From assembly GCA_044225935.1 (NCBI GenBank), contig JBGAHX010000020.1, positions 2,632 through 66,631 on the forward strand: DNA of 64,000 nucleotides. Direction: 5' to 3'. Of this stretch, positions 6,847 through 47,066 are shown one piece after another. Made by a program: the position numbers and the translations under genes. Source of the DNA: Gemmatimonadaceae bacterium (GTDB lineage Bacteria > Gemmatimonadota > Gemmatimonadetes > Gemmatimonadales > Gemmatimonadaceae). Numbering within the stretch: position 1 is the stretch's first letter; every line of letters starts with the position of its first letter. The notes beneath the pieces are model-generated. The model made no database searches. It saw nothing but the letters and a program-made list of their open reading frames with translations, and was not told where the DNA came from.

Positions 6847-7928
6847 CGCGCGACAACCTCTGCGGAAATGGCGCCGACCTGCTTGAGCGCTTCGAAGATC
6901 TGGGCGACCTGATGAGCCGGAGTGCGAACGGCCGACAATGCCGCCGCCAGTTGCTGCACGGTGGCCCCGGTCGGCACGCGTACCTGCCCTCCGGTTCCCT
7001 GCTGAGCAGTATCGGCAGGTGTCGGCCCAATCGAGAGTGTGAGTCCCTGAATGCTCACCACCCCCGGACCGAGGGTGAGATCGCCCCCGGCAACAATGGT
7101 CCCCTGCCGCTGGTCGATGACGATGCGGGCCACACGGGCTACCTCGACCTTGAGGTCCCGGATACGGGCAAGAACTGCCGCCGGTCCGCCCCCCGCGCTG
7201 TCCTTCGCGGTGATCGAAATTGCCCCCGGGTCCTCGACCTTCGCGCTCCCCTCTCCAACCACCGAGTCGATGGTCGCCGCGATCTTCGACGCCAGTCCGA
7301 TGTCGGGCTCGCGAAGCACGAGTCGTGTGCTTGCCTCGAACTTGGGGCGGGGGAGATCGGCCTCGATCACGCCGCCGGCGGCGATGCGCGAGCTGGCCGC
7401 GTTGAAGCCGATGCGACGACGAACGGCATCGTTCTCGTCGACATAGAGCGGGCCCTGCGCGGTGGCGAGCGGTTGTCCGCCCACTTCGGCGATGAGTGGC
7501 GTCATCCAGAGCACGCCGCCGCGGAGCGAGCGCGCGTCGCCGACCGAGGCGACCTGCACCTCGAAGCGGCCGCCCGGACGCAGATACGGCGAGACCTCGG
7601 CGGTCACGAGGACCGCGGCGACGTTTCGCGTGCGGAGAAACTCGGCAGGGACCACGACGTCAAAGCGGCGCAGCAGGTTGGCGACCGACTGCACCGTTTG
7701 CTGCGATCCGCGCCCGCTGTTGGTGTTGTCACCCGTGCCGCTCAATCCGGTCACGAGCCCATAGCCAACGAGACGAACCGGGACGCCCTGGTCGTCGATG
7801 ACCAGGTCGCGGATCGGGACGCCCTGCGCGAGTGCCGTCCGCGCGAGCGCCGCCTGCGTGCCGAGGCACGAGGCGGCGATGAGAAGGAGCCGGAACGCCC
7901 GTCGCAGGCGTGGGCGTGATCGCATCAT
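6843..7928 (-). CDS. flgI: Flagellar P-ring protein FlgI
   Basis: Signal peptide, then IRDLV...VRLVGYGLVTGLSGTGD and the characteristic FlgI C-terminus. Confidence 0.9.
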   Translation of the reverse strand: MMRSRPRLRRAFRLLLIAASCLGTQAALARTALAQGVPIRDLVIDDQGVPVRLVGYGLVTGLSGTGDNTNSGRGSQQTVQSVANLLRRFDVVVPAEFLRTRNVAAVLVTAEVSPYLRPGGRFEVQVASVGDARSLRGGVLWMTPLIAEVGGQPLATAQGPLYVDENDAVRRRIGFNAASSRIAAGGVIEADLPRPKFEASTRLVLREPDIGLASKIAATIDSVVGEGSAKVEDPGAISITAKDSAGGGPAAVLARIRDLKVEVARVARIVIDQRQGTIVAGGDLTLGPGVVSIQGLTLSIGPTPADTAQQGTGGQVRVPTGATVQQLAAALSAVRTPAHQVAQIFEALKQVGAISAEVVAR

Positions 7929-8647
7929 GGCCAGAAGAGTCCGAGGATCTTGGTGACGATGCCTGACTTGGGCTTGCCGAGCGATCCTTTCGCCGCGTAG
8001 GCCAGCTGGATGTCGGCGATGTGATCGGAGCCGACCACATCGCTCGAGTTGACGTCGATCGGGCTGACGAAGCCGGCGAGGGTGAGCGTGGTCTTGTTCT
8101 TGTCCACGTCGATGAGCTTGGAGCCCTTGACCTGCAGCATCCCGTTGGGCTGCACCGCGACGACGCGCACCGCGATCTCGGCGGCGTAGCGCGTGTCGCG
8201 GGTGGCATTGCCACGCTGGTTGGTGGTGCTTCCGTCGCCGGCGCCGTACGACGCGTCGATGTTCCCGAGCCCGGGCGTGCCGCTGCCAACGCTTGGGGGG
8301 CTCACGCCCAGGTCGAGCGATCGGCGGCGCGACGCGCTGGCGCTGTTGTCCTTGTTCGCCGAGGCGAGCGCGTACTCGTCGACGACAACCTTGATGATGT
8401 CACCCACGACGTAGCTGCGGCGGCTCGATGTCCAGGCGATGTTGCGCGTGGGGGCGGCCTTCGCCGAATCGGCGCGCGGCGGCGCCGCCTGCGCTCCGAG
8501 CGACGCGGCGACGACGCTCAGGAGCAGCAGGAGCGTGGAGAGCGCGCCGACCCAGGCGCCGACGGCGCGACCGCGATCGGGGGCGGGGACGGTAGGGATG
8601 ATCGTGACCTTTCGCGGGGTGGCCACGACGTCGCAGTGGTGGATCAT
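7925..8647 (-). CDS. flgH: Flagellar L-ring protein FlgH
   Basis: YVVGDIIKVVVDE...VVAVQPNGMLQVKGSKLIDVDKNKTTLTLAGFVSPIDV are FlgH-like. Start chosen at ATG 8645-8647, overlapping the flgA stop (ATGA). The longer track ORF overlaps flgA and is R-rich. Confidence 0.8.
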   Translation of the reverse strand: MIHHCDVVATPRKVTIIPTVPAPDRGRAVGAWVGALSTLLLLLSVVAASLGAQAAPPRADSAKAAPTRNIAWTSSRRSYVVGDIIKVVVDEYALASANKDNSASASRRRSLDLGVSPPSVGSGTPGLGNIDASYGAGDGSTTNQRGNATRDTRYAAEIAVRVVAVQPNGMLQVKGSKLIDVDKNKTTLTLAGFVSPIDVNSSDVVGSDHIADIQLAYAAKGSLGKPKSGIVTKILGLFWP

Positions 8648-9156
8648 GGGTTCCTCGAAGAGGCAATGGCGACGACGTGCGCCGGGCCGGCGACGACGCC
8701 GGTGACGCGGCGCCGCGCGCCGAGACGAACGGGGATGGTGTCGCCTAACGAGCCGGCGACCGGAGCGATGCCGTCGAGCGTGAGCGCGAGGCCGTTTTCC
8801 TGGACGGTGAACGTCACCGTCTGGCCGGCCGCGACAAGCGGGGCGGGGGCGACGGCCGGCGCGCGCAGCACTTCGCCCGCGCGCATGATGCGGCGCACGA
8901 GCCAACCCGGCGCGACCGGCGTCGGGCGGCGGGCGAAGCGACCGTCGGCCGCAACGCAGCGCATGGCGATGTCGCCGGCAAGGAGCGTCGCCCCTCGCGT
9001 GAGCGCGCGCGCCGCGACCGCGACCTCGACGGAGTCGGTGCCGCAGCGCGCGGGTCCCCCCTCCTGCGCCGACAGCGGCGACCGCCCGGAGGCCATCGCG
9101 ACCGCCAGCTGCACGACGAGGAGGAGGAACCAGCGAGAATGCAGGCGCATCGCCAT
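8644..9156 (-). CDS. flgA: P-ring assembly chaperone FlgA (SAF domain)
   Basis: Signal peptide plus a SAF-like C-terminus (LVRRIMRAGEVL...VAAGQTVTFTVQENGLALTLDGIA...GDTIPVRL). Position flgG-flgA-flgH. Confidence 0.75.
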   Translation of the reverse strand: MAMRLHSRWFLLLVVQLAVAMASGRSPLSAQEGGPARCGTDSVEVAVAARALTRGATLLAGDIAMRCVAADGRFARRPTPVAPGWLVRRIMRAGEVLRAPAVAPAPLVAAGQTVTFTVQENGLALTLDGIAPVAGSLGDTIPVRLGARRRVTGVVAGPAHVVAIASSRNP

Positions 9157-10778: not shown

Positions 10779-11147
10779 TCAGGTAGCGACTTGGCTGCGA
10801 ACTGGCTTGGCGCTTGATCGACCAAGCAGGCGCTGGAAGAAGGAAAGACGTGCCGCCGGGGGTGATTTCTGCCGGGAGGCAGGGGCGGAGAGCCCGGCGA
10901 GGAGTGCCAGTGCGTCGCGCGAGAGCCCCGTGCGGCGCGCGACATCGGCGGTGTCGATCCCCGACGCGACGAGTGCGCGCGCCGTCATCGCGCGCGGACG
11001 CCCCGACGCGTCGCGCGGCGTCTCGGCGCGCGCGGGCCAGGCGATGAGCACGAGGAGCGCGAGCAGGGCGACGGCGAGGATCCCGCTCGCTGCGAGCGTG
11101 AGCGCGTCGCTGGTGATCAGGTCGACGAGGTGGAGGAGCGTCGCCAT
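10779..11147 (-). CDS. Hypothetical small membrane protein downstream of fliA
   Basis: High third-position GC, N-terminal TM helix (LTLAASGILAVALLALLVLIAW), and an HTH-like stretch (IDTADVARRTGLSRDALALL). No family recognised. Confidence 0.5.
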   Translation of the reverse strand: MATLLHLVDLITSDALTLAASGILAVALLALLVLIAWPARAETPRDASGRPRAMTARALVASGIDTADVARRTGLSRDALALLAGLSAPASRQKSPPAARLSFFQRLLGRSSAKPVRSQVAT

Positions 11148-17854: not shown

Positions 17855-19258
17855 CTACTTGAAGCCCTGCACAAGCGATTGGATCAGTAGTGCCCATCCG
17901 TCAACCAGCACAAACAGCAGCAGCTTGAAGGGGAGGGCGATCATCGCGGGCGGGAGCATGAACATGCCCATGCTCATCAGGATCGAGCTGACGATGATGT
18001 CGATGACGATGAACGGGAGAAACAGGACGAAGCCGAGCTGGAAGGCGGTGCGCAGTTCGCTGGTGACGAAGGCGCTGGTGAGGACGATGGTCGAGACATC
18101 CTCGGGGCGCGCCGGCGGTGCTTCACCGCTCATGTCGACGAAGGCGGCGACGTCGCGCTCGCGCACCTGGCGGAGCATGAAGTCGCGCATTGGGCCGAGG
18201 GCGTTCTTCATCATCGCCCCCTGCTCGATCTGCCCGTCGAGCCACGGCGTGATCGCCACCCGATTCACTTCCTTCATCGTCGGCGCCATCACGAAGCCCG
18301 TCAGGAGCAACGCGAGGGCGCTGATGAGCTGAGCCGGGGGAGCCGTCTGCGTACCGAGCGCCTGCTTGAGGAACTGCAGGACGATCAGGATGCGCGTGAA
18401 GCTCGTCATCATGAGAACGAGCGTCGGGAGGAGCGTCAGCAGCCCGAGCATGATCACCACGCCGACCGAGCCGCTGAGCCGGAGCCCGCCCGGGCCGCTC
18501 CCGTCGACGCTGAGGTCCAGCTTCGGCATCGCCTTGCCTAACGCGTCGTCGAGTGAGGTCGACCCCTGTGCCGCCGGCACGGTGCTCGTCGCGGCGCGAG
18601 GCTGGGCCACGCCCTGCGGCGTGGCGGTCGCCGGACGCCCGTTGGCTGGCGCCGGTCCCGCTCCCCTCGTCGCGCCGTTCCGGGGCGCGCCTTGCGCCGC
18701 TCCCGCGGCGGCACCCTGTGGTGCTCCCTGTGCGCCTTGCGGTCGTGCGGGAGCTCCCGTCGCCTGGCGATTCGCTGGGGCATTCGTCGCCGCACCGGTG
18801 GCGCCGGCGCCAGTCGCCGCCTGTGCGAACGAGAGTCGCGGCGTGACGGCGAGCGACACGCCCGCCAGCAGCAACAGCGGAAGTCCCGCCGAGCGCAGGC
18901 CGTGCATCAGCGCGGCGCGAAAGTCGCGCGGCGCGCCGGGCGCGCCGGAAATGGGACCGGTGATCGCCTCGCGCACCGGGGCCGGCGCATTCGCCGCCTC
19001 CGCGTCGAGTTCGGCGATCGCGCGCACTCCCCCCTCGCCCACACTCACCGCAACGAGCTGCCCCCCGATGCGCACCACCGCGATCCCCTGACGGGGACCG
19101 AGCGCGATGCGCTGCACGATCTCGAGCTGCACGCCACCTTTGGATTTCCCCAGCGCCGCGCCGTTCGACACCTTGCGCAGGACGCGCATGGTGATCGCCA
19201 GCAGCGCCAGGACGAAGGCCAGGGTCAGCGCGACACCGACGAGCGACGCAAAGCTCAC
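17855..19258 (-). CDS. fliP: FliO and FliP encoded in one uninterrupted reading frame (fusion, or fliP initiating internally at 18907)
   Basis: aa 1-85 are FliO-like (one TM helix, then VQLEIVQRIALGPRQGIAVVRIGGQLVAVSVGEGGV). An internal MHGLRSAGLPLLLLAGVSLAVTPRLSFAQA looks like the FliP signal peptide. The C-terminus is canonical FliP (MTSFTRILIVLQFLKQALGTQTAPP...). Confidence 0.85.
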   Translation of the reverse strand: MSFASLVGVALTLAFVLALLAITMRVLRKVSNGAALGKSKGGVQLEIVQRIALGPRQGIAVVRIGGQLVAVSVGEGGVRAIAELDAEAANAPAPVREAITGPISGAPGAPRDFRAALMHGLRSAGLPLLLLAGVSLAVTPRLSFAQAATGAGATGAATNAPANRQATGAPARPQGAQGAPQGAAAGAAQGAPRNGATRGAGPAPANGRPATATPQGVAQPRAATSTVPAAQGSTSLDDALGKAMPKLDLSVDGSGPGGLRLSGSVGVVIMLGLLTLLPTLVLMMTSFTRILIVLQFLKQALGTQTAPPAQLISALALLLTGFVMAPTMKEVNRVAITPWLDGQIEQGAMMKNALGPMRDFMLRQVRERDVAAFVDMSGEAPPARPEDVSTIVLTSAFVTSELRTAFQLGFVLFLPFIVIDIIVSSILMSMGMFMLPPAMIALPFKLLLFVLVDGWALLIQSLVQGFK

Positions 19259-22939: not shown

Positions 22940-23644
22940 TTAGGAAAGGATCTTGACGATTGCGGCCATCGAGATGGTGAGCGGTCCCATGGTCAGCATG
23001 GCGCTCCCGTCCTGGCCGAAGGTCATCCCGTCGATCTTGCCGACGGCGTACGTATGCTGCGGCACGTCCTTGCCGTCGCTCCCGACCACGTCGATGTGCA
23101 CCGAGTACGCGCCCTCCGTCGCCGCGCCTGCTGCCGCCGCGCCGATGTCGAAGGACTTCATGGTGCCGCTCCCGACGTAGCCTAACGAGCGTGATCCGAC
23201 TTCCCTGCCGGACTGGTCGTACAGCGTGAGCTTCGCCACGCCACTCTGCGAGATGTCGGCGAGCACGGTCCCTCCGAGGTTGCCGTCGGCATCCTTCGTG
23301 AGCATGACCTTGTCGCTGTCGATCACCGCACTCTTGCCGATGGCGTTCATCGCCGAGCTGTTGCTGACCGCCATCGCCAGGGTGTTGAACTGCCCCTGCT
23401 GGGCCGCCAGCTTGTCGTTGATGTTGAGCAGCTGCTCCAGCCCCGAGAACTGGGCCAGGTCCGCCGCCATCTGCTTTCCATCCATAGGATCCATCGGATC
23501 CTGGTACCGCATCTGCGTGGTGAGGAGCTTGAGGAACTCGTCCTTCCCCAGTTTGCCACCCGGCGCCGGGACGTCGGTCGACGAATTCCCCGTCGACGTC
23601 GCCGCGTAGGCCGAATTGGCGATGGACTGGATGATGTTGCTCAC
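22940..23644 (-). CDS. flgD: Hook capping/scaffold protein FlgD
   Basis: LGKDEFLKLLTTQMRYQDPMDPMD...QFSGLEQL is the FlgD signature. Confidence 0.9.
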   Translation of the reverse strand: MSNIIQSIANSAYAATSTGNSSTDVPAPGGKLGKDEFLKLLTTQMRYQDPMDPMDGKQMAADLAQFSGLEQLLNINDKLAAQQGQFNTLAMAVSNSSAMNAIGKSAVIDSDKVMLTKDADGNLGGTVLADISQSGVAKLTLYDQSGREVGSRSLGYVGSGTMKSFDIGAAAAGAATEGAYSVHIDVVGSDGKDVPQHTYAVGKIDGMTFGQDGSAMLTMGPLTISMAAIVKILS

Positions 23645-26205
23645 CGTCTGTCTCCCTTGCCGTCACGACGCTGCCGTGACCGCTGTTGATCGGTGCCGTC
23701 GCGCTCGAAGGCGCGGGGCGGGTTGCGCGAATCCCTCGCGGTGGAGCCACCACCATCCGATGCGGTGGCTGATGCGGCGCGCGCCACGTCGCGCTCGGCT
23801 GCAACGGCCGAGGCGGTGAGCACCGACGCATCCGTACTGCGACTGCTCGTGCGTACAACCATCGATTCCCCTTCCAACCCCTGCCGCTGCAACGCCTGCT
23901 GCAGCTCGGGAACCCGAGACCGCAACTCCGCGGCTGCTTGCGGGTCGGCGATGTCCAGCGTGGTCCCGACCGAATGCCCGCGCAGGTCGATGCGAATGCG
24001 ATCCTCGCCCCCGTCGGGAGCATCGAGTCGCAGCAGCACCGACGACATCGGACGATCGTTCGCCGCTTCCTGGATGCGCAGCACGCGCGCGATCCGTTCG
24101 GTGGCGTCCGATCGCGTCAGACCGGCCACCGGCGACGCGGAGCTCGCGCGCTCGCCACGATCCGTCGTCACCCCGTCGTGCGCCGCGAGGGCCTTGGCAG
24201 CATCGCCCTCGGCCGGTGCGGCGTGCGCAGCGAGGACGCCTTCCGTGCGGTCGCGTTCTCCGCGCTCCGACGACGAGCGGCGTTCGCCAGACGCTCCGTG
24301 ACGCTGCTCTCCATCGTTGGCGATGACCGGCGCAGGTGCGAGGCGCGAGTTCCCCGGTGTGGCGTTAGGCGCGCCGGCGGGAAGTGGCGTACTCTCCGCA
24401 CCATGCCCCGCGTCGTCGGCACGCGCGGCGTCGACCGCCGCCCCACCGCCAACAGCGGCAACCGATGCGACCTGGGCCACCTGCGCGACCGTCGCCACGT
24501 GCGCCACCGGTGCGACCTGCGCCACCGGCGCCACGGTCGCCGGCGCGGCCACCCCCGCCACTCCTGCGACGCTCGCTACCCCGGCAACGCGCGCGATGAA
24601 GCCGGGTGTTCCGGTGGCAGCCGGCGCGACCAGCGTTCGCGTCGTGAGCGCGGAGTTGTCGATCGTTCCCCGCACTCCCTCTTCGCGCGACGCGTCGACC
24701 GGAACGTTCGGGGACGCCGTCGTGGGGAAGGGGAGAATGTGCGGCGCGTCGCCGTTTGGCGTGGTCGGGAGGATGTGCACACCCCGCTCGTTGCCCGGGA
24801 CCCAGTTCCTGACTCCCTGCAACGGCGGTGTAGCCGACGGATCGATCGCCGATCGCATCGCCTTCGGGATCGCGGGCACCAGCGACTCATCCACCCCCAG
24901 CGGGACGATGTGGATGTCGCCCTCGGCGCCGCGCACGAGCCGCGGTGCGAGGTCGGGTGGCGGCGCCTGACGAGTGGCGGAGCTCCCGCTGCCCACGAGC
25001 TCGATGTGTCCCGGATCGCGCGGCCACAGCGTGCGCAGTCCTTCCTGCCGCGCCACGCGCGCCAGGCGCTCGAACCCCGCCGAGTTGCCGTAGCCGCCGT
25101 CGATCACCACGTCGGCGGCGTTCCCCGCGAGATGGCGCGAGTTGCGCGTCCAGGTGACGACGTCACCCGGCGCCGTACGCCCCTGCGCATACAGTGCGTC
25201 CTGTCGCTCCTGCGAGCGCGTCGTCTCGACGACCTGCACGGTGTAGCCGTACTCCTGCTCCATGCGGTCGATCACGCGCTCGAGTCGCGCGCGCAGTTCG
25301 GGCGCGAGCCCTTCCATCTCCTTGTTCACGGCGAGCGGGTCGCGCGCCGATGTGCCTTCGAGCACCAAGCGTCGCGCGGCACTCGCCGCCTCGTCGATCA
25401 CTCGCTCGTCGATGGTGATCGCCGAGTCGCCCGTCGTCGTGGCGGTGGTTGCCGCCGGCGTTGCGGCTGACGGAGATCCGTTCGTCGCCGTCACGTTCAT
25501 CCCCGCGATGGCACCGGCGACCGCCGCGGCATTGCCGGCGACCAGGGTGAGCGGCGGAAGGGGGGCGACCGCGGCGTCCAACGGCTGCTCGACGAAGCTC
25601 GTCGCGGCGCCCGAGGCGTCGGGAGTCGCATCGCCCGTCGCGCCCGCAGTGTCATCCGCATCGCGCGACGCACTGCGGTCGTTGGCCGACGAAAGGCGTA
25701 CGGATGTCCGCGCCCCCGGCGTCCCAACGAACGTGGTCCCCGGCTCGCGACCGTTGCTCTTCGCATCGCGCCGCGCGTCGATGCGAGCGTCGGTGCTGCG
25801 CTCCGACGCGCCACGCACGCTACGCGCGCTCTCGCTCGCATCACGCGGCGCCGATTCGCGACGATCGTTCGCGCTGTCACGCGTCGATTCGCGACCTGCT
25901 TCGCGGGGAGACTCGTGCGTCGCCTCGCGCGGCGCGTTGTCGTCGCGCATCGCGCGCACCTCTCGGGCGTGCACGTCGGCAATCCGACGCTCGTCGGCCG
26001 ACTCGCCGCCGTGCGCGACGTCGCGTTTCGCTTCGCGCGATCGACGCATGGCCGCTTCGCGACTCTCCGACGGCTCGTGCAACGCGCTCGAGAGCGCGTG
26101 ACCGAACGTACGCGCGGGCTCGACGGCGCGATGCGTCATATCGTTAGTCGCGGCGGGCGAAGCGGGCTCCGACGCCGGACGGACGTACGAGACGGGGAGC
26201 GTCAT
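23641..26205 (-). CDS. fliK: FliK-type hook-length control protein with an internal M15-family zinc peptidase domain
   Basis: 854 aa in the fliK slot. The C-terminal VLLRLDAPDGGEDRIRIDLRGHSVGTTLDIADPQAAAELRSRVPELQQALQRQG is Flg_hook-like. aa ~296-405 read TTRSQERQDALYAQGRT...SRHLAGNAADVV...DPGHIEL (H-x6-D...H, M15 pattern). Long low-complexity linkers. Confidence 0.7.
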   Translation of the reverse strand: MTLPVSYVRPASEPASPAATNDMTHRAVEPARTFGHALSSALHEPSESREAAMRRSREAKRDVAHGGESADERRIADVHAREVRAMRDDNAPREATHESPREAGRESTRDSANDRRESAPRDASESARSVRGASERSTDARIDARRDAKSNGREPGTTFVGTPGARTSVRLSSANDRSASRDADDTAGATGDATPDASGAATSFVEQPLDAAVAPLPPLTLVAGNAAAVAGAIAGMNVTATNGSPSAATPAATTATTTGDSAITIDERVIDEAASAARRLVLEGTSARDPLAVNKEMEGLAPELRARLERVIDRMEQEYGYTVQVVETTRSQERQDALYAQGRTAPGDVVTWTRNSRHLAGNAADVVIDGGYGNSAGFERLARVARQEGLRTLWPRDPGHIELVGSGSSATRQAPPPDLAPRLVRGAEGDIHIVPLGVDESLVPAIPKAMRSAIDPSATPPLQGVRNWVPGNERGVHILPTTPNGDAPHILPFPTTASPNVPVDASREEGVRGTIDNSALTTRTLVAPAATGTPGFIARVAGVASVAGVAGVAAPATVAPVAQVAPVAHVATVAQVAQVASVAAVGGGAAVDAARADDAGHGAESTPLPAGAPNATPGNSRLAPAPVIANDGEQRHGASGERRSSSERGERDRTEGVLAAHAAPAEGDAAKALAAHDGVTTDRGERASSASPVAGLTRSDATERIARVLRIQEAANDRPMSSVLLRLDAPDGGEDRIRIDLRGHSVGTTLDIADPQAAAELRSRVPELQQALQRQGLEGESMVVRTSSRSTDASVLTASAVAAERDVARAASATASDGGGSTARDSRNPPRAFERDGTDQQRSRQRRDGKGDRR

Positions 26206-26882
26206 GGCTGCACCACGGCAGCGCGGAGCACCGCCTTGCTGATCGTCGCGGCACGGGCGGGGGGGAAGTTGCGCAGGATCGCCGCCGCCTGCTTTTCGCT
26301 CAGCGTCGAGATCACGCTCTGCACCTCGGTGTCCTCGAGTTGCTCGAGTACCATCGCGGCATCCTTGGCCGGCATCGCGGCAAAGATCTTCGCAACCTTC
26401 GACACGCCGGGGGGCGGCGTCTTCGCGGCAGACGTGACGATAGGGCGCGGCGGCGGCGTCGGTCGCGAAGTGCTACCCGGTACTGTTCCGGGCGACCCGT
26501 TCGACTCGACCGTCTGCACGGCCCTGTTGTAAGTCTTTGGAGTCTTGGTGGCCGACGGAGCGGGCGCATGCGCGGTCTCGACAGCCGGCGCAGCTCCGTG
26601 GCTGCTCGGCTTCTCGGCGCCGCCGTGCTCGGGCGCGCCATGCTCGGCGGCCGAGGATGAATCGGCCGGCACGCCTTCGGCCGTGGAATCCGCTCCGTGC
26701 CCGGTCGATGCGACGTGCTTCGCTCCTTCCTCCTCGGCTTTCGCCAACGAGTCGGCGACGAGAGCCGCCTTGCGCGCGACATCGGCTGCGTAGGCCTTCT
26801 TGGCGTTCATCACCGACACCGCCGATCCGCCGCCCAACCCGACCACGAGGCCGATCACCGCGAGCACAATGAGCTTCATCAT
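26202..26882 (-). CDS. YlxF/FlbB-like flagellar protein with an MgtE-N-like C-terminal region
   Basis: N-terminal TM helix; C-terminal KIFAAMPAKDAAMVLEQLEDTEVQSVISTLSEKQAAAILRNF. Position between fliJ and fliK, as for Bacillus ylxF. Confidence 0.5.
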   Translation of the reverse strand: MMKLIVLAVIGLVVGLGGGSAVSVMNAKKAYAADVARKAALVADSLAKAEEEGAKHVASTGHGADSTAEGVPADSSSAAEHGAPEHGGAEKPSSHGAAPAVETAHAPAPSATKTPKTYNRAVQTVESNGSPGTVPGSTSRPTPPPRPIVTSAAKTPPPGVSKVAKIFAAMPAKDAAMVLEQLEDTEVQSVISTLSEKQAAAILRNFPPARAATISKAVLRAAVVQP

Positions 26883-32392: not shown

Positions 32393-32737
32393 TCAGGCCT
32401 TCACGTCGAGTCGTCCGCCGCGCGCCATGGGCGCGCTGGCCGGCATCTGCCCGGAGAGCACGCGCCCGTACGTCAGCGGTCCCATCGCCCCCAACTTGGC
32501 GAAGTAGGCGCGCTCATCCTGCGTGAGCACGCTCCACAGCGCGGGGTCGGTCCCTTGTGGCGGCTGGACGGGAACGCTCGCTGGGCTTGCAGCTGCCGGA
32601 GCACGGACGGCGGCGGTCTGCGCCGGAACGTTGGCGCGCTGCGCCTGTCCCGCCGTCCCCGCCTGATCGGGGCGCGCCGGCACGTTCGACGGCCGGATCG
32701 GCGCTCCATATGGTGATCGAATCCCGTTGATGCTCAT
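32393..32737 (-). CDS. Hypothetical protein inserted between flgC and fliE
   Basis: 114 aa with a Pro/Ala-rich N-terminal half and a C-terminal LWSVLTQDERAYFAKLGAMGPLTYG. Its stop is 2 nt from the fliE start. No family recognised. Confidence 0.5.
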   Translation of the reverse strand: MSINGIRSPYGAPIRPSNVPARPDQAGTAGQAQRANVPAQTAAVRAPAAASPASVPVQPPQGTDPALWSVLTQDERAYFAKLGAMGPLTYGRVLSGQMPASAPMARGGRLDVKA

Positions 32738-32795: not shown

Positions 32796-33325
32796 TATAT
32801 GTCCAACGCTCGTCGCAGCAGCTGCTTCGCCGCCTGAAACACGGTGGCATTCGCCTCGTAGACCCGGCGCGCCTCCATCATGTCGACCAGCTCGTCCGTC
32901 ACTTGCACGTTGGGGTAGCGCACGTAACCGTTCGCATCGGCGTCGGGGTGCCCCGGGTCGTAGACCATCGGTCCTTCGCTCGGATCTTCCTCGATCGCGG
33001 TCGCGCGCACGCCGCCGTAACTGTCGGTCGGATCTTCCGGCGAGACGCCGGGCTGCATGTCGCTGCCTGGAAGCGGCGGATACGCCGGCGCTGAACCCTC
33101 GCGGATCGACGGCTCGGCCACGACGACGCGGCGGCGATACGGGCCGCCCCCTTCGGTGCGCGTCGTTTCGGCGTTGGCGATGTTCGTCGCCACCGTCTCC
33201 ATCCGCAGTCGCTGGAGCGACATCCCGCTGGTCGCGATGTCCATCGGACGGAAGAGCGGGGGACGCGGTGTGCGCTCCATGTTGTTGGTCAGGAGCGGAA
33301 GCATCTTGACTGGAGGGATCGTCAT
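32795..33325 (-). CDS. flgC: Proximal rod protein FlgC
   Basis: FRPMDIATSGMSLQRLRMETVATNIANAETTRT ... VYEANATVFQAAKQLLRRALDI. Its ATG overlaps the flgB stop by 1 nt. Confidence 0.9.
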   Translation of the reverse strand: MTIPPVKMLPLLTNNMERTPRPPLFRPMDIATSGMSLQRLRMETVATNIANAETTRTEGGGPYRRRVVVAEPSIREGSAPAYPPLPGSDMQPGVSPEDPTDSYGGVRATAIEEDPSEGPMVYDPGHPDADANGYVRYPNVQVTDELVDMMEARRVYEANATVFQAAKQLLRRALDI

Positions 33326-33609
33326 CAGCGCTCCCGGATCGCGAGGCGAAGCTTGGCGTAGGTCTTCTCGAGGAGCTTGGCCGTCGCTTCGTAGCGCAGC
33401 TGCTCATCGGCGAGCGACGTCATTTCGGCTTCCAGGTTCACCGCTTCGCCCGGCGCCGTCGTCCCATCGGGAAGGGCGAACCCGCTCTGGTTCTGCAGGG
33501 ACGCGCCGGAGACGCGCTGAGCGATCGACTTGACGCGCTGATTGCTCGCATCGAGTGCATCGCGCAGCTGCGGCGCCTGCGAAACCCGGCCAAAGAATCC
33601 GAAGAGCAT
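33325..33609 (-). CDS. flgB: Proximal rod protein FlgB (short, 94 aa)
   Basis: C-terminus VNLEAEMTSLADEQLRYEATAKLLEKTYAKLRLAI is FlgB-like. First gene of the unit, with a GGAGGGGG Shine-Dalgarno 2 nt upstream. Confidence 0.75.
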   Translation of the reverse strand: MLFGFFGRVSQAPQLRDALDASNQRVKSIAQRVSGASLQNQSGFALPDGTTAPGEAVNLEAEMTSLADEQLRYEATAKLLEKTYAKLRLAIRER

Positions 33610-35634: not shown

Positions 35635-36516
35635 ATGCGGATCACCAACAACATGGTCAGCCGAGCTTCGCTGGCAGGACTCCAGCGAGCGCTTCGGGGG
35701 GTGAACGATGCGCAGAACCGGGCGACGACCGGTCTGCAGGTCGAACGCGCCTCCGATGACCCGTCGGCCTCCAGCTCGATCATGGCGTCGGGCTCGACCC
35801 TGCGGGCGATCGACCAGTACAAGCGCAACATCAACTCGGCGCGTGCCCGCCTCGATCGTGAAGAGTCGATCATGGGTTCGGTATCGACGATGCTCGAGCG
35901 CGCAAAGGAGCTCGGCGTCTCGCAGGGGACCGGCACCGCCGACGCGCAGACGCGACTCACTGCCAAGGCCGAAGTCGACCAGCTGTTGCAGGCGGTCGTC
36001 CAACTCGGCAACACGTCGCACGAAGGGGAATTTCTCTTCGGCGGCGACCAGTCGAATGTTGCGCCATTCAACGGGACCACGGCTCCGTACTCCGCCGCTC
36101 CGCCGACCGGGACGCGTTATGCCGAGATCTCGTCCGCGCTCAGCATCCGCACGAACCACAACGGCACCGACGCCTTCCTCAACAGCGGCGTCCTCGCGTC
36201 GCTCGAGCAGCTCTCCCTCGCGCTCGGCGCGAACGACCAGACGGCGATCCAGGCATCGCTCTCGTCGCTCGATAGCGCGCACGCCAACGTGCAGGTCCTT
36301 ATCGGCGAGACCGGCGCCGCGTCGCAGCAGCTCGACGTCGCGACCTCCAATCTCGACGCGCTCGACACCTCGCTCCGCACCTTCAAGTCGTCGCTGCAGG
36401 ATGCCGACATCGAGAAGGCCGTGACCGAGCTGGTGGGGCGCCAGACCGCCTATCAATCCGCGATGCTTGCGACGTCCCGCGTGATGAGCCTCAACCTGGC
36501 AGACTACCTGCGATGA
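35635..36516 (+). CDS. flgL: Hook-associated protein 3 FlgL
   Basis: MRITNNMVSRASLAGLQRALRGVNDAQNRATTGLQVERASDDPSA... flagellin-family termini, 293 aa. The 5-prime part of track ORF 34219..36516 is antisense shadow. Confidence 0.85.
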   Translation: MRITNNMVSRASLAGLQRALRGVNDAQNRATTGLQVERASDDPSASSSIMASGSTLRAIDQYKRNINSARARLDREESIMGSVSTMLERAKELGVSQGTGTADAQTRLTAKAEVDQLLQAVVQLGNTSHEGEFLFGGDQSNVAPFNGTTAPYSAAPPTGTRYAEISSALSIRTNHNGTDAFLNSGVLASLEQLSLALGANDQTAIQASLSSLDSAHANVQVLIGETGAASQQLDVATSNLDALDTSLRTFKSSLQDADIEKAVTELVGRQTAYQSAMLATSRVMSLNLADYLR

Positions 36517-37010
36517 GCAACTCGGTGGCAACAGCTCCCGACGATCGCCTCTCCATCTCGTCCGACCTTCTCGGCGCCCTGGACGTCTCCTCGAGCGACA
36601 TCGTCCGCTTTCCCGGCGGACTGTACGGCTTTCCGGAGTGCCGCGGCTTCGTCCTCCTCCCGGCGGCGCGCGAAAGCTTCTTCTGGCTCCAGTCGAGCGA
36701 GTACAGCAGCCTCTCGTTCCTCCTCGTCGATCCGTTCGCCTGGTTCCCGGACTACCACATCGATCTCGACGACGTGGACCTGGTCCGGCTCGGCTCCAAC
36801 GATCCAAAGCACCTGCTCGTCCTCACGATCGTCACGATGCCGAGTGCACCTGGCGAGCCGTGCACGGCGAACCTGCACGCCCCGATCCTCTTCAACATGC
36901 GGGACCGGCACGCGCACCAGTCGATTCGCCCCGACGACGGCAACAGCATCCGCGAGCCGTTCTACCTCGACCAGCCCCCCGCCGAGTCGGCGGTGGCTGC
37001 CGCGCACTAG
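36513..37010 (+). CDS. fliW: Flagellar assembly factor FliW (CsrA antagonist)
   Basis: IVRFPGGLYGFPECRGFVLLP...FFWLQSSEYSSLSFLLVDPFAWFPDY...NLHAPILFN is FliW-like. Confidence 0.85.
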   Translation: MSNSVATAPDDRLSISSDLLGALDVSSSDIVRFPGGLYGFPECRGFVLLPAARESFFWLQSSEYSSLSFLLVDPFAWFPDYHIDLDDVDLVRLGSNDPKHLLVLTIVTMPSAPGEPCTANLHAPILFNMRDRHAHQSIRPDDGNSIREPFYLDQPPAESAVAAAH

Positions 37011-37343: not shown

Positions 37344-39748
37344 ATGTCCGCAGTCATACGTCCGACCGACGCGGCGGCCCACGCCGATTTCGCGAACGCC
37401 GTCGCGTTCCACATCGCCGGCGACATCGCCGCCGCGCGACGCGAGTACGAGAAGGTGCTGACGCGGGATCCCGACCATGCCGAGGCCTGCAACAATCTCG
37501 CGTCGATCCTGGCGGGGCAGGGTGAGGAGGAGCGCGCGGAGCAGCTGCTCCTGCGCGCGGTGGGGACGTCGGCAACCTATGCCGAAGCGCACAACAACCT
37601 TGGACTCCTCTGGTCGGGGCGCGGCGAATTCGCACGCGCCCTCGCTGCCTTCGAACGCGCCGTGGCGCTCGATGGCTCGAAGGCCGGCTGGCACAGCAAC
37701 CTTGGAAATGCCTGCGTGGAGCTCTTCCGCTTCGCCGAGGCGATCGTCGCCTTCGATCGCGCGGTCGCGATCGACGATCGCGATGCCGACGTCTGGTCCA
37801 ATCGCGCCCTCGCCCTTCGTGGCCTGCAGCGCCAGGACGACGCCATCGAGTCGCTGCGACGCGCGCTCTCTCTCGCGCCCTCGCACGTCAACGCGTTGAG
37901 CAACCTCGGCATCATGCTCAAGGAGATCAAGCGCCTCGATGAAGCCGAGTCGCTCCTCGCGCGTGCGACGGCGATCGACCCCGCCAACCCAAAGCTCTGG
38001 TGCAACTACGCGGCGATCTTCGAGGCGCGCGGTCAGTACGGTCGCATGCGCGAACTCGCAGAGCACGCGTGCACACTCGACCCCACCTATCCCGAGGCAT
38101 GGAATCTCCTCGCCAACGGCGAGATGGAAGCGGGACGCTACGACTCGGCGATCGCGCTCTACGAAAAGGCGCGCGCGTTCGATCCCTACAACAGCAATGC
38201 CAACTGGAACCTCGCCCTCCTCTGGCTCCTGAAGGGAGACTTCGCGCGCGGGTGGCCCCAGTTCGAGTGGCGCAAGCGCCTGCAGTCGGCGGTCATCGAT
38301 CGCGGTGAGTACGCTGGCGCGGAGTGGGATGGGAGTCCGCTCGCCGGGCGCGACATCCTCCTGCATACCGAACAGGGTGTGGGTGACGCCTTCCAGTTCG
38401 TACGCTTCGCTCCGCAGCTCAAGGAGAACGGTGCACGACGCGTCTATCTCGAATGCCCGTATCCGATCGTCCCGCTCCTCACGGGAGTGCGTGGACTCGA
38501 CGCGGTCGTTGCGCGTGGCGTTGCACTCCCCGCATTCGATGTCCACGCCAACCTCATGAGCCTCCCCGGGCTTCTCGGCACGACGCTCGACTCGATTCCC
38601 GCCGAGGTGCCGTACATCCCGGTCGAGCCGCGAACGGTCAGCGCGCGCGTCGATTCTCCTCCCGGGACGCTCACCGTCGGCTTCGTGTGGGCCGGCAATC
38701 CGCTGCACGGTCGCGACTTCCTGCGCTCCGCTCCGATGGAGTCGTTCCGCGCGCTCGCTGCCATCGACGGTGTGAAGTTCTTCTCGTTGCAGAGAGGGGA
38801 TGCCGCCGAGCGCGAACTCGCGTCGCACCCGATCGACGGTGTCGTCGACCTCGCCAACGACCTGCGCGACTTCCGCGACACGGCTGCCGTGCTGCAGGCG
38901 CTCGACCTCGTGATCACCGTCGACACGTCGGTGGCCCACCTGGCCGGTGCGTTAGGCAGGCCCACCTGGCTCCTCCTCCCGCACGTCCCCGACTTCCGCT
39001 GGTTGCTCGATCGCACCGATTCGCCGTGGTATCCGACGATGCGCATCTTCCGCCAGCCCGAGCCGCGCGATTGGGAGAGCGTCTTCGACGCCGTCGCGAT
39101 CGCGTTGCGCGAGCGCGTTGCCGGCGACTCCGGATCGACGTCGCGCGCATCGTCCGTTCCTGCAGCTCCCGCGCCCGCCATCGCTGACGACACGGTGGTC
39201 ACGCTTTCATCGGCCGCGCGTGTCCCAGACGGGCGCCCGCGCTTCGACCTCTATACGTCGCTCGCATCGCTCGCCGATCCGCAGCGCTTCGCCGAGTACG
39301 AGGCGGAACTCGTCGGCGTCGGGCACGACATGCCGGTGCGCACCTTCCTCGACGAGTACCTGCGCGATGGCGATGTCCTCGTCGACCTCGCGCCCAATCT
39401 CGGGGTCGCGGTCCTGTCGGCGGCCACCGCGCCGAAACCTCCTGCGACGATCGTCATCGTCGAAGCGCGTGACGCCGAAGCGGATCGCCTGCAGTCGCTT
39501 GTCGCGCGCCGCGCCCCGCTGGTATCGGTCGTTCGCGCTGCCGACGCGCGTTCGGCTATGCGCGATCGCGACCGGGCTCCGGGCGCACGACTGGTCGTCC
39601 GCGCAGGGGACGGGAGCGACGTCGCGCGCGCATCGTCGATGCGATCGGGAGCACCGAGGGCGAGCGCCGTCCGGCCGTCGTGGCGTGGTCGAGCCTCGTG
39701 CCGGCCGACGCCAGCGGCCCGCTCACCTTCCTCGAGTCGTTAGGGTAA
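37344..39748 (+). CDS. TPR-repeat protein fused to a GT9/GT41-like glycosyltransferase domain plus an FkbM-like C-terminal region. The last ~40 codons appear to continue in another frame (apparent frameshift near 39623-39631).
   Basis: N-terminal TPRs (AEAHNNLG..., SNLGNA...). LHTEQGVGDAFQFVRFAPQLK, VGFVWAGNP, DLVITVDTSVAHLAGALGRPTWLLLP. The track ORF ends at 39743, but third-position GC favours the frame ending TAA 39746-39748. Confidence 0.7.
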
Positions 39749-41254
39749 GTGACCCTCGCCCTGAGCATCGCAGGCACCGAGGCGTCACTCGATGCCATCG
39801 ACGATCCGTCGAGAGCGCAGGCGTTGGTGAGTATCGCACACGCAGCGCTCGACGCGATGGAACAGGACGCGGAAGCTTCTGCTTCCGCCGCGACCGCTCC
39901 GGCCGCGCCGGCGCCGATTCAGGTATCGATCTCGATGCCCGGTGCGATCGTCTCCGCGCCTGCGCCTGCGCCTGCGCCCGTGCCGGCTCGTGCGTCGGCC
40001 GCCGATCGCGGCGCCATATCGATCTCGATCGGTGGAATGGAGCCGCTCCAGCAACAGGATGTGTCCGCGAGCGATGGTCTCGCGCTCGGCGAAATCGGCA
40101 TCGACTGGCAGCTGCGCGGCGATTCCGGGTGGGGCGTGTACGGGACCAACCTCGCTCTCGAGCTCGAGCGTTCGGGGACGCATCTCCCCACAATCTTCGC
40201 GGCCGATACGACCGACTTGTCGCCGGTGGCGCGTTTCCGCCTCGATCGCGCATTGCGCGCGGGTGCGGCGCGTGCAAACGCGCATGCGGGGAGGGCGACG
40301 CCGCTCCCCTTCGACGGGCTCATGCTTCGCGCTCTTGGCAACGACTTCGGGCACGGACCGTTGTGGGAGCAGGTTTCCGCCAGCCGCAACGCGGGCGTCA
40401 TCTTCTTCGAGGATTCTGCCTTCGACGACGCGGCGATGCAGCGCGCACGCGCGCTCGACCTCATCGTCGCCGGCTCGCACTGGAACGCCGAAGTGCTGCG
40501 TGGCGCGGGGCTCGATCACGTCGTCACAGTCCTGCAGGGGATCGATCCCACGATCTTCCACCCCGCGCCAGCCAGCGGGCACCTGGGCGAGCGCTTCGTC
40601 GTCTTCTCCGGCGGAAAGCTCGAGTATCGCAAGGGGCAGGATCTCGTCGTCGCCGCATTCCGTGCATTCCAGGCTCGGCATCCCGACGCGTTGCTCCTGA
40701 CGGCGTGGCACAACAACTGGCCGCAGCTGATCGCCGACCTCGATCTCGCCGGCCACGTGCACGGCGTTCCAACGGTTCGCGACGGTCACCTCGACGTCAC
40801 CTCCTGGCTCGTGTCGAACGGCATCCCGCAGGGCGCCATCCTCGACGTGAGGCGCACTCCGAATGCGATGATGGGACACGTCGTGCGCGAAGCGAATGTC
40901 GCCATCTTCCCCAACCGATGCGAAGGGGGGACGAACCTCGTCGCGATGGAGTGCATGGCCGCCGGCATCCCGACCATCGTCGCGAACAACTCGGGACAGC
41001 GCGACCTGGTGGCAACCGGGGGCGCGATTGCGCTCGAGCAGCAGCGCCCAGTTGCTCACCCCACCCGTCACTTCCGCAGCACCGAGGGGTGGGGCGAGAG
41101 CGACGTGGAGGAGATGGTCGAGGCACTCGAGCGCCTCTACACCGACCGCGCGCGCGCCAGGGAAATCGCCCGAAACGGCGCCGTCGCCCTGCGCGCCATG
41201 AGTTGGAAGAATCAGGTGGGCGAGCTCCTGAGGGTTCTCGCTCCATTGCTCTAG
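39749..41254 (+). CDS. Glycosyltransferase, GT4 (group 1) family, with an Ala/Pro-rich N-terminal region
   Basis: FSGGKLEYRKGQDLVVAAF..., FPNRCEGGTNLVAMECMAAGIPTIV (EX7E-type motif). Exact start uncertain. Confidence 0.7.
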   Translation: MTLALSIAGTEASLDAIDDPSRAQALVSIAHAALDAMEQDAEASASAATAPAAPAPIQVSISMPGAIVSAPAPAPAPVPARASAADRGAISISIGGMEPLQQQDVSASDGLALGEIGIDWQLRGDSGWGVYGTNLALELERSGTHLPTIFAADTTDLSPVARFRLDRALRAGAARANAHAGRATPLPFDGLMLRALGNDFGHGPLWEQVSASRNAGVIFFEDSAFDDAAMQRARALDLIVAGSHWNAEVLRGAGLDHVVTVLQGIDPTIFHPAPASGHLGERFVVFSGGKLEYRKGQDLVVAAFRAFQARHPDALLLTAWHNNWPQLIADLDLAGHVHGVPTVRDGHLDVTSWLVSNGIPQGAILDVRRTPNAMMGHVVREANVAIFPNRCEGGTNLVAMECMAAGIPTIVANNSGQRDLVATGGAIALEQQRPVAHPTRHFRSTEGWGESDVEEMVEALERLYTDRARAREIARNGAVALRAMSWKNQVGELLRVLAPLL

Positions 41255-41286
41255 TCTCCCGTCCCCCGTCTCCCGTCTCCCGTCCC
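41255..41286 (+). repeat. Heptamer array TCTCCCG TCCCCCG TCTCCCG TCTCCCG TCCC, ending 5 nt before the FkbM-methyltransferase ATG
   Basis: Fills the 37 nt spacer between the GT4 stop (41252-41254) and ATG 41292. Confidence 0.9.
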
Positions 41287-41291
41287 AGATC

Positions 41292-42116
41292 ATGCGCCAG
41301 GAAATCAGCATCAACCTCGCGTCACCCAGCGGTCCGCGTCAGCTCAAGCTCCTCCTCGATCCCGAGCAGATGAGCCAGCGCTTCATGCTGAACGACTTCG
41401 GCTCGGGAAAACTCTACGAGTCGGAAACATCGAACTTCATCGGCTCGATCCTTCGGCCGGGCGACACCTTCATCGACATCGGGGCGCACGTCGGCTATTT
41501 CACGATGCTCGCCTCGACCCTCGTGGGACCGACCGGCGCGGTTTACTGCTTCGAGCCCGAGCTCGGGAACTACGGCCACCTTCTCGAGCACATCGAGGTG
41601 AACGGTGCCACCAACGTCCGTCCGTTGCACATGGCGGTTGGAGCTGCGCCAGCGACGGCCGACTTCTTCGTCAATGCCGACAACGATGGCGGGCACGCGC
41701 TTTGGGAAGTGGGACGCCACCCGTTCAACGAGCGCACGCGCAATGCGCCGGTCTCGCGCAAGGTCTTCGTCACCTCGCTCGACCACATCTTCGAGAATCG
41801 CGACATGCGCACCCTCAAGGCGATCAAGATCGACGCCGAGGGGGCGGAGTTCGCGATCCTCGTTGGCGCGCGCGAGCTGCTTCGCCGTACTCGCATTCCA
41901 TTTATAGTCGCCGAGATCAACCGCTTCGGCCTCGAGTCGATGGGCGCGAGCGAGCGGCACGTGCGCGAGTTCATGAGTGATCTGGGTTACGAAACCTACC
42001 TCTTCCAACCCGGTCAATCGTTCCTTCAGCGCCTGCAGTCCGACGAGTCGCCGCAGACGGACTACGTCTTCAACATCCTGTTCCGTCACCCCGAGGCCCC
42101 GGCGATGGCCGCGTGA
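41292..42116 (+). CDS. FkbM-family methyltransferase
   Basis: GDTFIDIGAHVGYFTMLAS, CFEPE..., IKIDAEGAEFAILVGA are typical FkbM-family (SAM-dependent) motifs. Confidence 0.8.
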   Translation: MRQEISINLASPSGPRQLKLLLDPEQMSQRFMLNDFGSGKLYESETSNFIGSILRPGDTFIDIGAHVGYFTMLASTLVGPTGAVYCFEPELGNYGHLLEHIEVNGATNVRPLHMAVGAAPATADFFVNADNDGGHALWEVGRHPFNERTRNAPVSRKVFVTSLDHIFENRDMRTLKAIKIDAEGAEFAILVGARELLRRTRIPFIVAEINRFGLESMGASERHVREFMSDLGYETYLFQPGQSFLQRLQSDESPQTDYVFNILFRHPEAPAMAA

Positions 42117-47049: not shown

Positions 47050-47066
47050 GCACGAGGACGCACGCC

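Follow-up and report, generated by a model that had tools for sequence, protein, structure and literature searches.

The window analysed here, a stretch of 64,000 nucleotides with a G+C content of 67% from a Gemmatimonadaceae bacterium (contig JBGAHX010000020.1), holds an almost complete flagellar and chemotaxis regulon according to Pfam scans, and the gene in its fliK position (23641..26205, minus strand) encodes an 854-residue fusion protein in which a zinc-peptidase module of the M15/LAS type precedes the C-terminal domain of the hook-length ruler FliK. Judged by sequence and predicted fold, we are highly confident that this gene is the Gemmatimonadota fliK orthologue and that an M15 peptidase of the Ply500/LysB4/CwlK/TagX type, to all appearance active, is embedded in its product. 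The domains are arranged in the order N-terminus, M15 module, spacer with a (VAx)n repeat and FliK C-terminal domain. The open reading frame (ORF), stop codon included, is uninterrupted, and together with the Pfam assignments of its neighbours this bears out an earlier reading of the DNA made without database searches (the sequence-only reading), which had placed a single 854-codon ORF in the fliK slot and whose residue numbers and nucleotide coordinates proved exact on a codon check. An identical protein (P0001) is present in NCBI, and the N-terminal methionine and a conserved N-terminus are common to the fusion protein and its homologues.

The C-terminal domain of the fusion protein

The C-terminal domain typical of FliK, also known as the T3S4 or substrate-specificity-switch domain, was assigned to aa 700-815 (23761..24108, minus strand) by Pfam, AlphaFold2 and Foldseek. 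The Pfam model Flg_hook (PF02120) matched aa 715-791 with E = 3.6e-8 and 33.6 bits, the gathering score being 29.8, and aa 700-815 fold into a compact alpha/beta domain in an AlphaFold2 model of the whole protein derived from 97 homologues, with predicted local distance difference test scores (pLDDT) of 83-96 over aa 721-790. When this full-length model was compared with the PDB using Foldseek, two M15 endolysins came first, and below them stood the C-terminal domain of FliK (2rrl, E = 4e-3) as well as PscP's substrate-specificity-switch domain (5cuk, E = 3e-2, target TM-score (TMt) 0.54). A single-sequence phmmer search of the C-terminal 165 aa against PDB sequences gave chance-level matches only, so that the assignment rests on Pfam and the fold search. 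A Flg_hook-like C-terminus had already been proposed from the sequence, and the Pfam score above the cut-off, the fold match to FliK and PscP and the conserved synteny described below support it. The domain is present in all 97 homologues, and a six-frame hidden Markov model (HMM) scan of the window found no second copy. It is followed by an Arg-rich tail (aa 816-854 and stop codon; 23641..23760, minus strand), which is moderately conserved.

The internal M15/LAS module

The M15/LAS zinc-peptidase module spans aa 262-405 (24991..25422, minus strand) and consists of a leading helix (aa 267-288) and a catalytic core (aa 296-405). An AlphaFold2 model of aa 288-412 reached a pLDDT of 88.3 and a predicted TM-score (pTM) of 0.80, and its best Foldseek match was Ply500 (2vo9, E = 2e-7, query TM-score (TMq) 0.71), with LysB4, LysECD7, VanXYc, ChiX, LdcB and the L-Ala-D-Glu peptidases of RB49 and T5 among the other top matches. 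Altogether, 19 PDB fold matches were obtained at E <= 1e-3, 13 of them M15/LAS peptidases and six Hedgehog N-terminal domains, which have the same LAS fold. At the sequence level, a single-sequence search found LysB4 and Ply500, both solved L-Ala-D-Glu endopeptidases, at E = 1e-5, and a profile of 33 orthologous M15 domains matched the PDB sequences of the same two enzymes with 3.9e-12 for Ply500 and 4e-12 for LysB4. The isolated region matched phage endolysin families in PHROGs down to E = 1e-17, and tblastn with the domain returned 99 phage records at 33-41% identity, several of which are annotated as L-alanyl-D-glutamate endopeptidase or endolysin. The best 150 representative-library matches to the domain were all within the fusion family, and the six-frame HMM scan detected no second M15 domain in the 64-kb window.

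By these profile and fold matches the internal module is homologous to M15 peptidases, well beyond chance. The sequence-only reading had seen an M15 zinc peptidase in residues ~296-405, in agreement with the PHROG, Ply500/LysB4 profile and Foldseek matches, and the structure prediction that it had proposed for the peptidase region yielded a confident M15/LAS fold. The outcome of the profile-HMM search proposed at the same time was mixed: Flg_hook scored above the Pfam cut-off and M15 homology to PHROG and PDB profiles was significant, whereas the Pfam M15 models stayed below their cut-offs, the whole-protein Pfam scan giving for this region a VanY match only, below threshold.

Zinc ligands and catalytic residues

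The codon-checked motifs of the module are R330, S356-x-H358-x2-G-x-A-x-D365 and D397-x-x-H400. His358 (25132..25134, minus strand), which lies in the S-x-H-x2-G-x-A-x-D motif and aligns with the SNH..G.A.D of Ply500 and LysB4, is the predicted first zinc ligand, and Asp365 (25111..25113, minus strand), which completes the H-x6-D arrangement and is aligned to the same two enzymes, the predicted second. For the segment Asp397-Pro-Gly-His400 (25006..25017, minus strand; D-x-x-H) the alignment predicts that the Asp is the general base and the His the third zinc ligand. Both motifs align with the zinc ligands and the general base of Ply500-type enzymes, and the D397-H400 segment also aligns with its counterpart in the Zn DD-carboxypeptidase of Streptomyces (1lbu); the roles of the residues at the Ply500/TagX active site were taken from PMC5061870.

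H358, D365, D397 and H400 are invariant in 97 of 97 homologues, as is Arg330, a predicted substrate-site residue. Since these residues are invariant although the sequences are otherwise only 30-66% identical, an enzyme rather than a scaffold is expected, and the embedded peptidase is apparently catalytically competent and under strict constraint at its catalytic residues. The same invariance speaks against a non-enzymatic module that would act as a folding plug, an anchor or a wall-binding element. By refolding after leaving the channel, such a module might pull on or fasten the N-terminal part of the ruler at the cap, or keep it at the wall, and in this way set the measured length. Such a role would suit the location of the module inside the ruler region, its distance to the FliK C-terminal domain (73-341 aa across family members) varying less than the stretch before the peptidase (4-558 aa), and LAS-fold domains lacking peptidase function do exist, for example the Hedgehog N-terminal domain found among the fold matches. 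We consider a purely structural role improbable and disfavoured by the conserved active site, though anchoring could coexist with an enzymatic function. As to the bond cleaved, analogy with the closest characterized enzymes (Ply500, LysB4, the T5 and RB49 peptidases, ChiX and TagX) predicts L-Ala-D-Glu, that is, an L,D-endopeptidase.

Conservation of the fusion in Gemmatimonadota

A search of 5.8 billion proteins yielded 97 homologues of 473-1056 aa, and local HMMs built from their alignment detected an M15 domain followed by a FliK C-terminal domain in every one of them. When 1.84 billion representatives of 50%-identity clusters were searched exhaustively with a profile, 456 clusters were found at E <= 1e-30. 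The best 150 contained 124 new representatives, 111 with both domains and 13 without the FliK C-terminal domain, the latter being shorter (163-648 aa) and looking truncated, with several ending inside the repeat of the spacer. In addition, one genome per GTDB species was scanned, resulting in 287 genomes with a relative, and the loci of the best 80 were compared. Among these 80, every genome with a name at the level of phylum or lower belongs to Gemmatimonadota (Gemmatimonas, Roseisolibacter, Gemmatimonadales, Longimicrobiaceae). Both domains lie in one frame in ~72 of the 80 loci, six loci being cut by contig ends and two having the halves in overlapping frames. The order fliI-fliJ-ylxF-fusion-flgD-flgE-fliL is found in ~70 of the 80 loci as well as on a 5.5-Mb metagenomic contig (L081) with independent gene calls; taken singly, the flgD position is kept in 72 loci and the ylxF-like position in 70. 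As the taxa with the fusion span two classes, Gemmatimonadia and Longimicrobiia, we infer that the fusion probably predates the split between them.

With a single frame in more than 200 independent sequences from different assemblies, there is little room for the view that the long ORF is an artefact of a frameshift or misassembly joining a peptidase gene to fliK. The halves do lie in different frames in two of the 80 loci and in one extra contig, but these exceptions are single indels or come from assemblies with many broken neighbour genes, and one break falls within the M15 domain. Misassembly or a chance ORF is thus effectively excluded, and we regard its probability as negligible.

Frameshifted fusion genes were observed in three related assemblies (L003 8984..11696; L041 8960..11306; L082 4500..6678). 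The break in L041 is a single indel directly after the M15 domain, whereas no single indel was pinpointed in L003, whose match to the orthologue in L005 consists of two diverged blocks in different frames, the contig name of L003 suggesting a long-read assembly; L003 and L041 were for these reasons rejected as two-gene versions. In L082 the FliK homologue is collinear but spread over five frames, with one break inside the M15 domain, and FliH, FliI, ylxF, FlgE, FliL and FliO/P are fragmented, too. Given the contig ends, the indels and the many broken neighbour genes in L082, the frameshifted loci suggest long-read assemblies prone to indels, or possibly the decay of a flagellar cluster, and not genuine two-gene versions. 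A search among close relatives with the FliK C-terminal domain only returned 12 short fragments and no stand-alone full-length FliK, and the one fragment on a long contig sits in an assembly with many broken genes. Comparison of orthologous clusters, by which the sequence-only reading had hoped to tell a fused from a split gene, thus gave a clear answer, as related genomes keep both domains in one frame rather than in two genes.

The annotations of the homologues (P0005, P0049, P0053, P0066, P0067, P0069 and P0082 among them) are inconsistent, with names such as FliK hook-length control, M15 family metallopeptidase, CwlK, D-alanyl-D-alanine dipeptidase, YcbK (DUF882) and hypothetical protein, and no database name for them covers both domains. 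Annotation pipelines label one half only, so that the fusion architecture is invisible in databases. For the protein of the window, public annotation misses the M15 domain because no Pfam M15 model reaches its curated cut-off.

Disordered regions, repeat and selection

Outside the two domains the full-length AlphaFold2 model has a pLDDT < 50 over aa 44-259 and most of aa 409-699, a short helix at aa 31-42 being better predicted. The disordered N-terminal region (aa 1-261; 25423..26205, minus strand) is rich in Ala, Arg, Ser, Thr and Asp and begins with a conserved motif, M-x-x-P ... F-x-x-A-L-x-x-A, whose second part lies at ~aa 34-42 and in which M1 and F34 are nearly invariant; this motif may resemble the N-terminus of Salmonella FliK. 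Neither a Sec signal nor a transmembrane segment was found in the protein, and the hydropathy maximum of the first 60 aa is 0.13. The N-terminal region presumably contains the signal for export by the type III secretion system of the flagellum (fT3SS) and forms part of the ruler.

The spacer that leads from the peptidase to the FliK C-terminal domain (aa 406-699; 24109..24990, minus strand) is likewise disordered, is rich in Ala, Gly, Pro and Val and is presumed to be the main ruler segment. It contains a (V/I-A-x)n tripeptide repeat at aa 538-585 (24451..24594, minus strand), which was identified by Tandem Repeats Finder (TRF) and family comparison, with TRF giving periods of 9, 18 and 27 for the DNA at 24426-24534. 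The repeat is present in 199 of 236 family members (including P0009, P0017, P0081 and P0233) with 4-12 units, x being mostly R, Q, T or S. Several of its Ala and Val columns are nearly invariant, AlphaFold2 predicts no structure for it, and as the most hydrophobic stretch of the protein it could pass for a membrane segment. The sequence-only reading had noted a Val-Ala low-complexity spacer, which was correct insofar as the stretch separates the two domains; it is in fact a conserved tripeptide repeat rather than mere low complexity, and it may be a ruler or channel-interacting element.

Three H-I-[VL]-P motifs follow the peptidase at aa 431-434, 476-479 and 489-492 (~24727..24914), their surroundings reading GDIHIVPLG, GVHILPTTP and APHILPFP. 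These motifs are confined to the closest relatives, at least one of them occurring in 29 of the 236 family members. The first one shows short strands with raised confidence in the full-length model and possibly packs on the peptidase.

Pairwise comparison with seven orthologues gave ratios of nonsynonymous to synonymous substitutions (dN/dS) of 0.18-0.32 for the M15 domain, 0.18-0.37 for the FliK C-terminal domain and ~0.22-0.32 for the Arg-rich tail, and of ~0.6-0.7 for the N-terminal region and ~0.6 for the spacer; all values are rough owing to poor alignment of the flanks and a high dS. The protein is a series of conserved islands in a fast-evolving disordered chain.

Operon context and other wall enzymes

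The ATG of the fusion gene overlaps the stop codon of the ylxF-like gene directly upstream (26202..26882, minus strand; MgtE_N/FliG-like according to Pfam) in the sequence ATGA, and its TGA overlaps the GTG start codon of flgD, the hook cap gene directly downstream (22940..23644, minus strand; Pfam FlgD match), in the sequence GTGA. By virtue of these overlaps on both sides the fusion gene is part of a translationally coupled operon. Pfam scans gave the gene order fliF-fliG-fliH-fliI-fliJ-(MgtE_N/ylxF-like)-fusion ORF-flgD-flgE-fliL-fliM.

The cluster encodes a single-domain FlgJ of 113 aa (6505..6846, minus strand), for which Rod-binding is the sole Pfam match (E = 1.5e-14). Rod-binding was not matched in the fusion protein, and GH73 was matched by Pfam in neither the fusion protein nor FlgJ; the FlgJ of this cluster has lost, or never had, a hydrolase domain. 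Among the ~50 ORFs of the window that were scanned, a few small ones being without Pfam match, none carries a glycosidase, lytic transglycosylase, amidase or other peptidase domain. Two claims made from the sequence, that FlgJ is devoid of a hydrolase domain and that no other wall enzyme is encoded among the flagellar genes of the 64-kb window, are in line with these scans.

A model for the function of the fusion protein

The homology to Ply500-type enzymes makes it quite probable that the peptidase acts on peptidoglycan, whereas the chances that its role is to let the rod or hook cross the wall appear evenly balanced. As a whole, the explanation we lean towards is that a type III-exported ruler would cut stem peptides locally during rod and hook growth. 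As the protein has no N-terminal signal peptide, export by the fT3SS is its only evident route to the wall. The ruler would be exported N-terminus first and unfolded through the channel of the nascent rod and hook, intermittently during rod-hook assembly, and the M15 module would refold and bind Zn2+ on emergence, as long as the growing tip had not left the periplasm. Stem peptides would then be cut at the assembly site, and the removal of cross-links would allow the ~10-nm rod, capped by the single-domain FlgJ, to pass the sacculus. Ruler molecules exported after the passage of the hook through the outer membrane would leave the cell, by which wall cutting would automatically be limited in time and place. 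The C-terminal T3S4 domain would flip FlhB to the export of late substrates, as in other bacteria.

Several steps of this model have precedents. While the hook is being built, FliK secretion proceeds intermittently (PMC7911332), and in Salmonella the fT3SS delivers an engineered FliK-beta-lactamase, at the rod stage, to the periplasm, where the enzyme is active (bioRxiv 10.1101/2024.03.11.584431). In bacteria whose FlgJ has a single domain, passage of the hook through the wall depends on a separate lytic enzyme (PMC8517470), and TagX, a Ply500-like L,D-endopeptidase cleaving L-Ala-D-Glu, is required for the secretion system of type VI (T6SS) to cross the peptidoglycan of its producer (PMC5061870).

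The evidence for an enzyme (fold, profile matches, invariant residues) would equally fit a peptidase that is active on peptidoglycan but remodels the wall around the basal body, for the assembly of the P-ring or the anchoring of MotB and the stator, the hole being made by a separate enzyme elsewhere. The ring proteins FlgI and FlgH are encoded in the cluster, as is a MotB whose peptidoglycan-binding domain is OmpA-like, and our view of the genome comprises 64 kb. Delivery through the channel would, however, put the enzyme at the distal tip and not around the basal body, and no candidate for a second hydrolase was seen in the cluster; we rate this alternative as unlikely.

Flagellar export of non-flagellar proteins is known from other bacteria, and the closest relatives of the module are cell-lysing phage endolysins. 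Together with the fact that FliK is a secreted protein (PMC7911332), this would be compatible with a lytic enzyme that leaves the producer by flagellar export, once the hook is outside, and works against neighbouring bacteria or scavenges wall fragments. The fusion protein, however, lacks any module for binding the cell wall or crossing an outer membrane, the wall of diderm neighbours is out of reach for a peptidase acting from outside, and each flagellum exports few ruler molecules. The strict 1:1 fusion with fliK across the phylum and the absence of a hydrolase domain from FlgJ argue for a role in assembly rather than in external lysis, which strikes us as quite improbable.

A number of points weigh against local stem-peptide cutting by the exported ruler. 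The identification of the module itself does not reach the curated Pfam cut-offs, as VanY scored 15.5-16.9 bits (cut-off 25) and Peptidase_M15_3 16.7 bits (cut-off 23.2), and an NCBIfam scan of the whole protein gave no match. Yet VanY was matched by 33 of the 33 family M15 domains and Peptidase_M15_3 by 30 of them at E <= 1, and scores below the cut-offs despite such family-wide matches indicate a divergent member of the clan that can be assigned to no single Pfam family. The bond specificity is extrapolated from homologues that are only 24-41% identical. A Sec-exported lytic transglycosylase of the SltF/LTaseBb type, encoded outside the 64-kb window, could be the real hole-maker. Wall penetration in Salmonella belongs to the rod stage, while FliK is known above all for being exported at the hook stage. 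The wide length variation before and after the peptidase makes a simple ruler awkward. Moreover, folding or activity would have to be controlled, since an L-Ala-D-Glu peptidase in the cytoplasm could attack the UDP-N-acetylmuramoyl (UDP-MurNAc)-peptide precursors.

That the hook-length ruler is the wall-opening tool of the flagellum and the only flagellum-dedicated wall hydrolase of the phylum, specific for stem peptides and self-switching-off, is the boldest version of local cutting by the ruler, and we put it forward tentatively, as possible rather than probable.

Comparison with known systems

By sequence and predicted fold, the fusion protein is a member of the FliK/T3S4 family and a divergent member of the M15/LAS clan (Peptidase_MD in Pfam); it does not belong to the FlgJ, SltF or TagX families, though it may work alike. 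It shares with FliK of Salmonella and E. coli, which form a T3S4 family with YscP and PscP, the C-terminal Flg_hook/T3S4 domain, the disordered N-terminal and central ruler region and the lack of a signal peptide, and its gene, the sole one of its kind in the cluster, lies next to flgD-flgE. What sets it apart from FliK is a ruler that contains the folded zinc-peptidase module and the conserved (VAx)n repeat. Salmonella FliK comprises 405 aa, the fusion protein being about twice as long. To our knowledge, no FliK or YscP with an enzyme domain has been characterized. In the full-text literature, with subscription journals largely outside its coverage, we found no account of a FliK-peptidase fusion or of flagellar assembly in Gemmatimonadota. 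The statement in the sequence-only reading that it knew of no described fusion of a hook-length ruler with a peptidoglycan peptidase therefore still stands, absence from that literature not being proof.

The dual-domain FlgJ of beta- and gammaproteobacteria, a rod cap with a GH73 glucosaminidase, is also a type III-exported flagellar substrate that carries a wall-cutting enzyme (PMC8517470), but in the fusion protein the carrier is the ruler and not the rod cap, the predicted bond lies in the stem peptide and not in the glycan, and the fold is M15/LAS and not GH73. In systems with a single-domain FlgJ, represented by SltF of Rhodobacter and LTaseBb/BB0259 of Borrelia, FlgJ is without hydrolase and another protein must supply the lysis (PMC8517470), as would be the case here. 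SltF and LTaseBb, however, are separate glycan-cutting proteins that are recruited by binding to FlgJ, whereas the candidate described here is a peptidase fused to FliK. TagX from the T6SS of Acinetobacter belongs to the same Ply500-like type of LAS peptidases and serves a trans-envelope machine that crosses the wall of its own producer (PMC5061870). In contrast to the fusion protein, which has no transmembrane segment and a flagellar context, TagX is anchored in the inner membrane, is encoded in a T6SS cluster and is neither secreted nor a ruler. An enzyme fused to FliK, exported by the fT3SS and active in the periplasm at the rod stage, has been engineered in Salmonella in the form of FliK-beta-lactamase (bioRxiv 10.1101/2024.03.11.584431), these reporters being artificial C-terminal fusions whose enzyme has no role in assembly, unlike the native fusion.

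The module has the fold, the H-x6-D...D-x-x-H arrangement and the R-S-x3-Q-x2-L-Y-x-Q-G-R-T motif in common with Ply500, LysB4, CwlK and the L-alanoyl-D-glutamate peptidases of phages T5 and RB49, but identity to these Ply500-type enzymes is only 24-41%, a cell-wall-binding domain is missing and the module lies midway along a disordered flagellar protein. Phage tape-measure proteins with peptidoglycan-hydrolase motifs, such as Tmp of mycobacteriophage TM4 and Pb2 of T5, are length-determining, travel through a tube and degrade the wall. This likeness is an analogy only, as proteins and machines are unrelated to the fusion protein. PMC11329794 describes a hydrolase on a phage baseplate hub protein rather than on a tape measure and was not used as evidence for the analogy.

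The passage of flagella through the wall is understood in only a few proteobacteria and spirochaetes, where the enzyme cuts glycan strands and either belongs to FlgJ or is brought in by it. For most phyla with a single-domain FlgJ the wall enzyme has yet to be named, and the fusion protein is a concrete candidate for a whole phylum that would differ in its chemistry (a stem-peptide endopeptidase), in its carrier (a secreted ruler) and in a built-in control of the place and time of cutting. If the ruler itself is the wall-opening tool, this would represent a third solution to the crossing of the sacculus, next to dual-domain FlgJ and single-domain FlgJ with a lytic transglycosylase, as well as a convergent counterpart of the phage tape-measure proteins that carry wall hydrolases. 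For the ruler field it raises the question how length is measured with a refolding 140-residue enzyme in the middle of the ruler.

Further genes of the flagellar cluster

Besides the genes mentioned so far, Pfam scans of the window identified motAB, flgK, flgN, flgJ, flgI, flgH, flgA, flgG and flgF, moreover fliA, a MinD/ParA-like ATPase in the flhG position, flhF, flhA and flhB, and finally a fliO-fliP fusion, fliE, flgC, a sigma-54 activator, fliW, flagellin, fliD, cheY and cheR. FliO and FliP are encoded in one ORF of 467 aa (17855..19258, minus strand), in which aa 27-98 match the Pfam model FliO and aa 270-462 the model FliP. A single FliO-FliP ORF of 397 aa is also found on the related 5.5-Mb contig (L081 16126..17319) by an independent gene call, and this fusion seems typical of Gemmatimonadota.

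Between fliW (36513..37010) and flagellin (42327..43421), at 37344..42116 (plus strand), three genes lie directly upstream of flagellin, coding for a 799-aa tetratricopeptide repeat protein with a weak glycosyltransferase-9 match, a 501-aa GT4-type glycosyltransferase and an FkbM-type methyltransferase; the trio looks like an island for the glycosylation or modification of flagellin. The filament cap protein FliD (43503..46175, plus strand) is unusually long with 890 aa and contains FliD_N, a Flagellin_IN motif and two stretches of FliD_C. Beside motA/motB, on the opposite strand, a protein with EAL and HDOD domains is encoded (1016..2374, plus strand), a possible link of cyclic di-GMP to motility control.

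Small ORFs of the cluster that had no Pfam match or were outside the scan are located at 32393..32737, 33325..33609, 10779..11147 and 4271..4501 (all minus strand) and at 46627..47405 (plus strand). The first two lie where one would expect flgB or another small gene for a rod component or a chaperone, and two small ORFs after fliD could be fliS/fliT-like. The longest FlgH ORF (7925..8905, minus strand; 326 aa) contains the FlgH domain only at aa 157-326 and overlaps the FlgA ORF (8644..9156, minus strand) by ~260 nt, so that the true FlgH start probably lies further downstream or FlgH has an unusual N-terminal extension.

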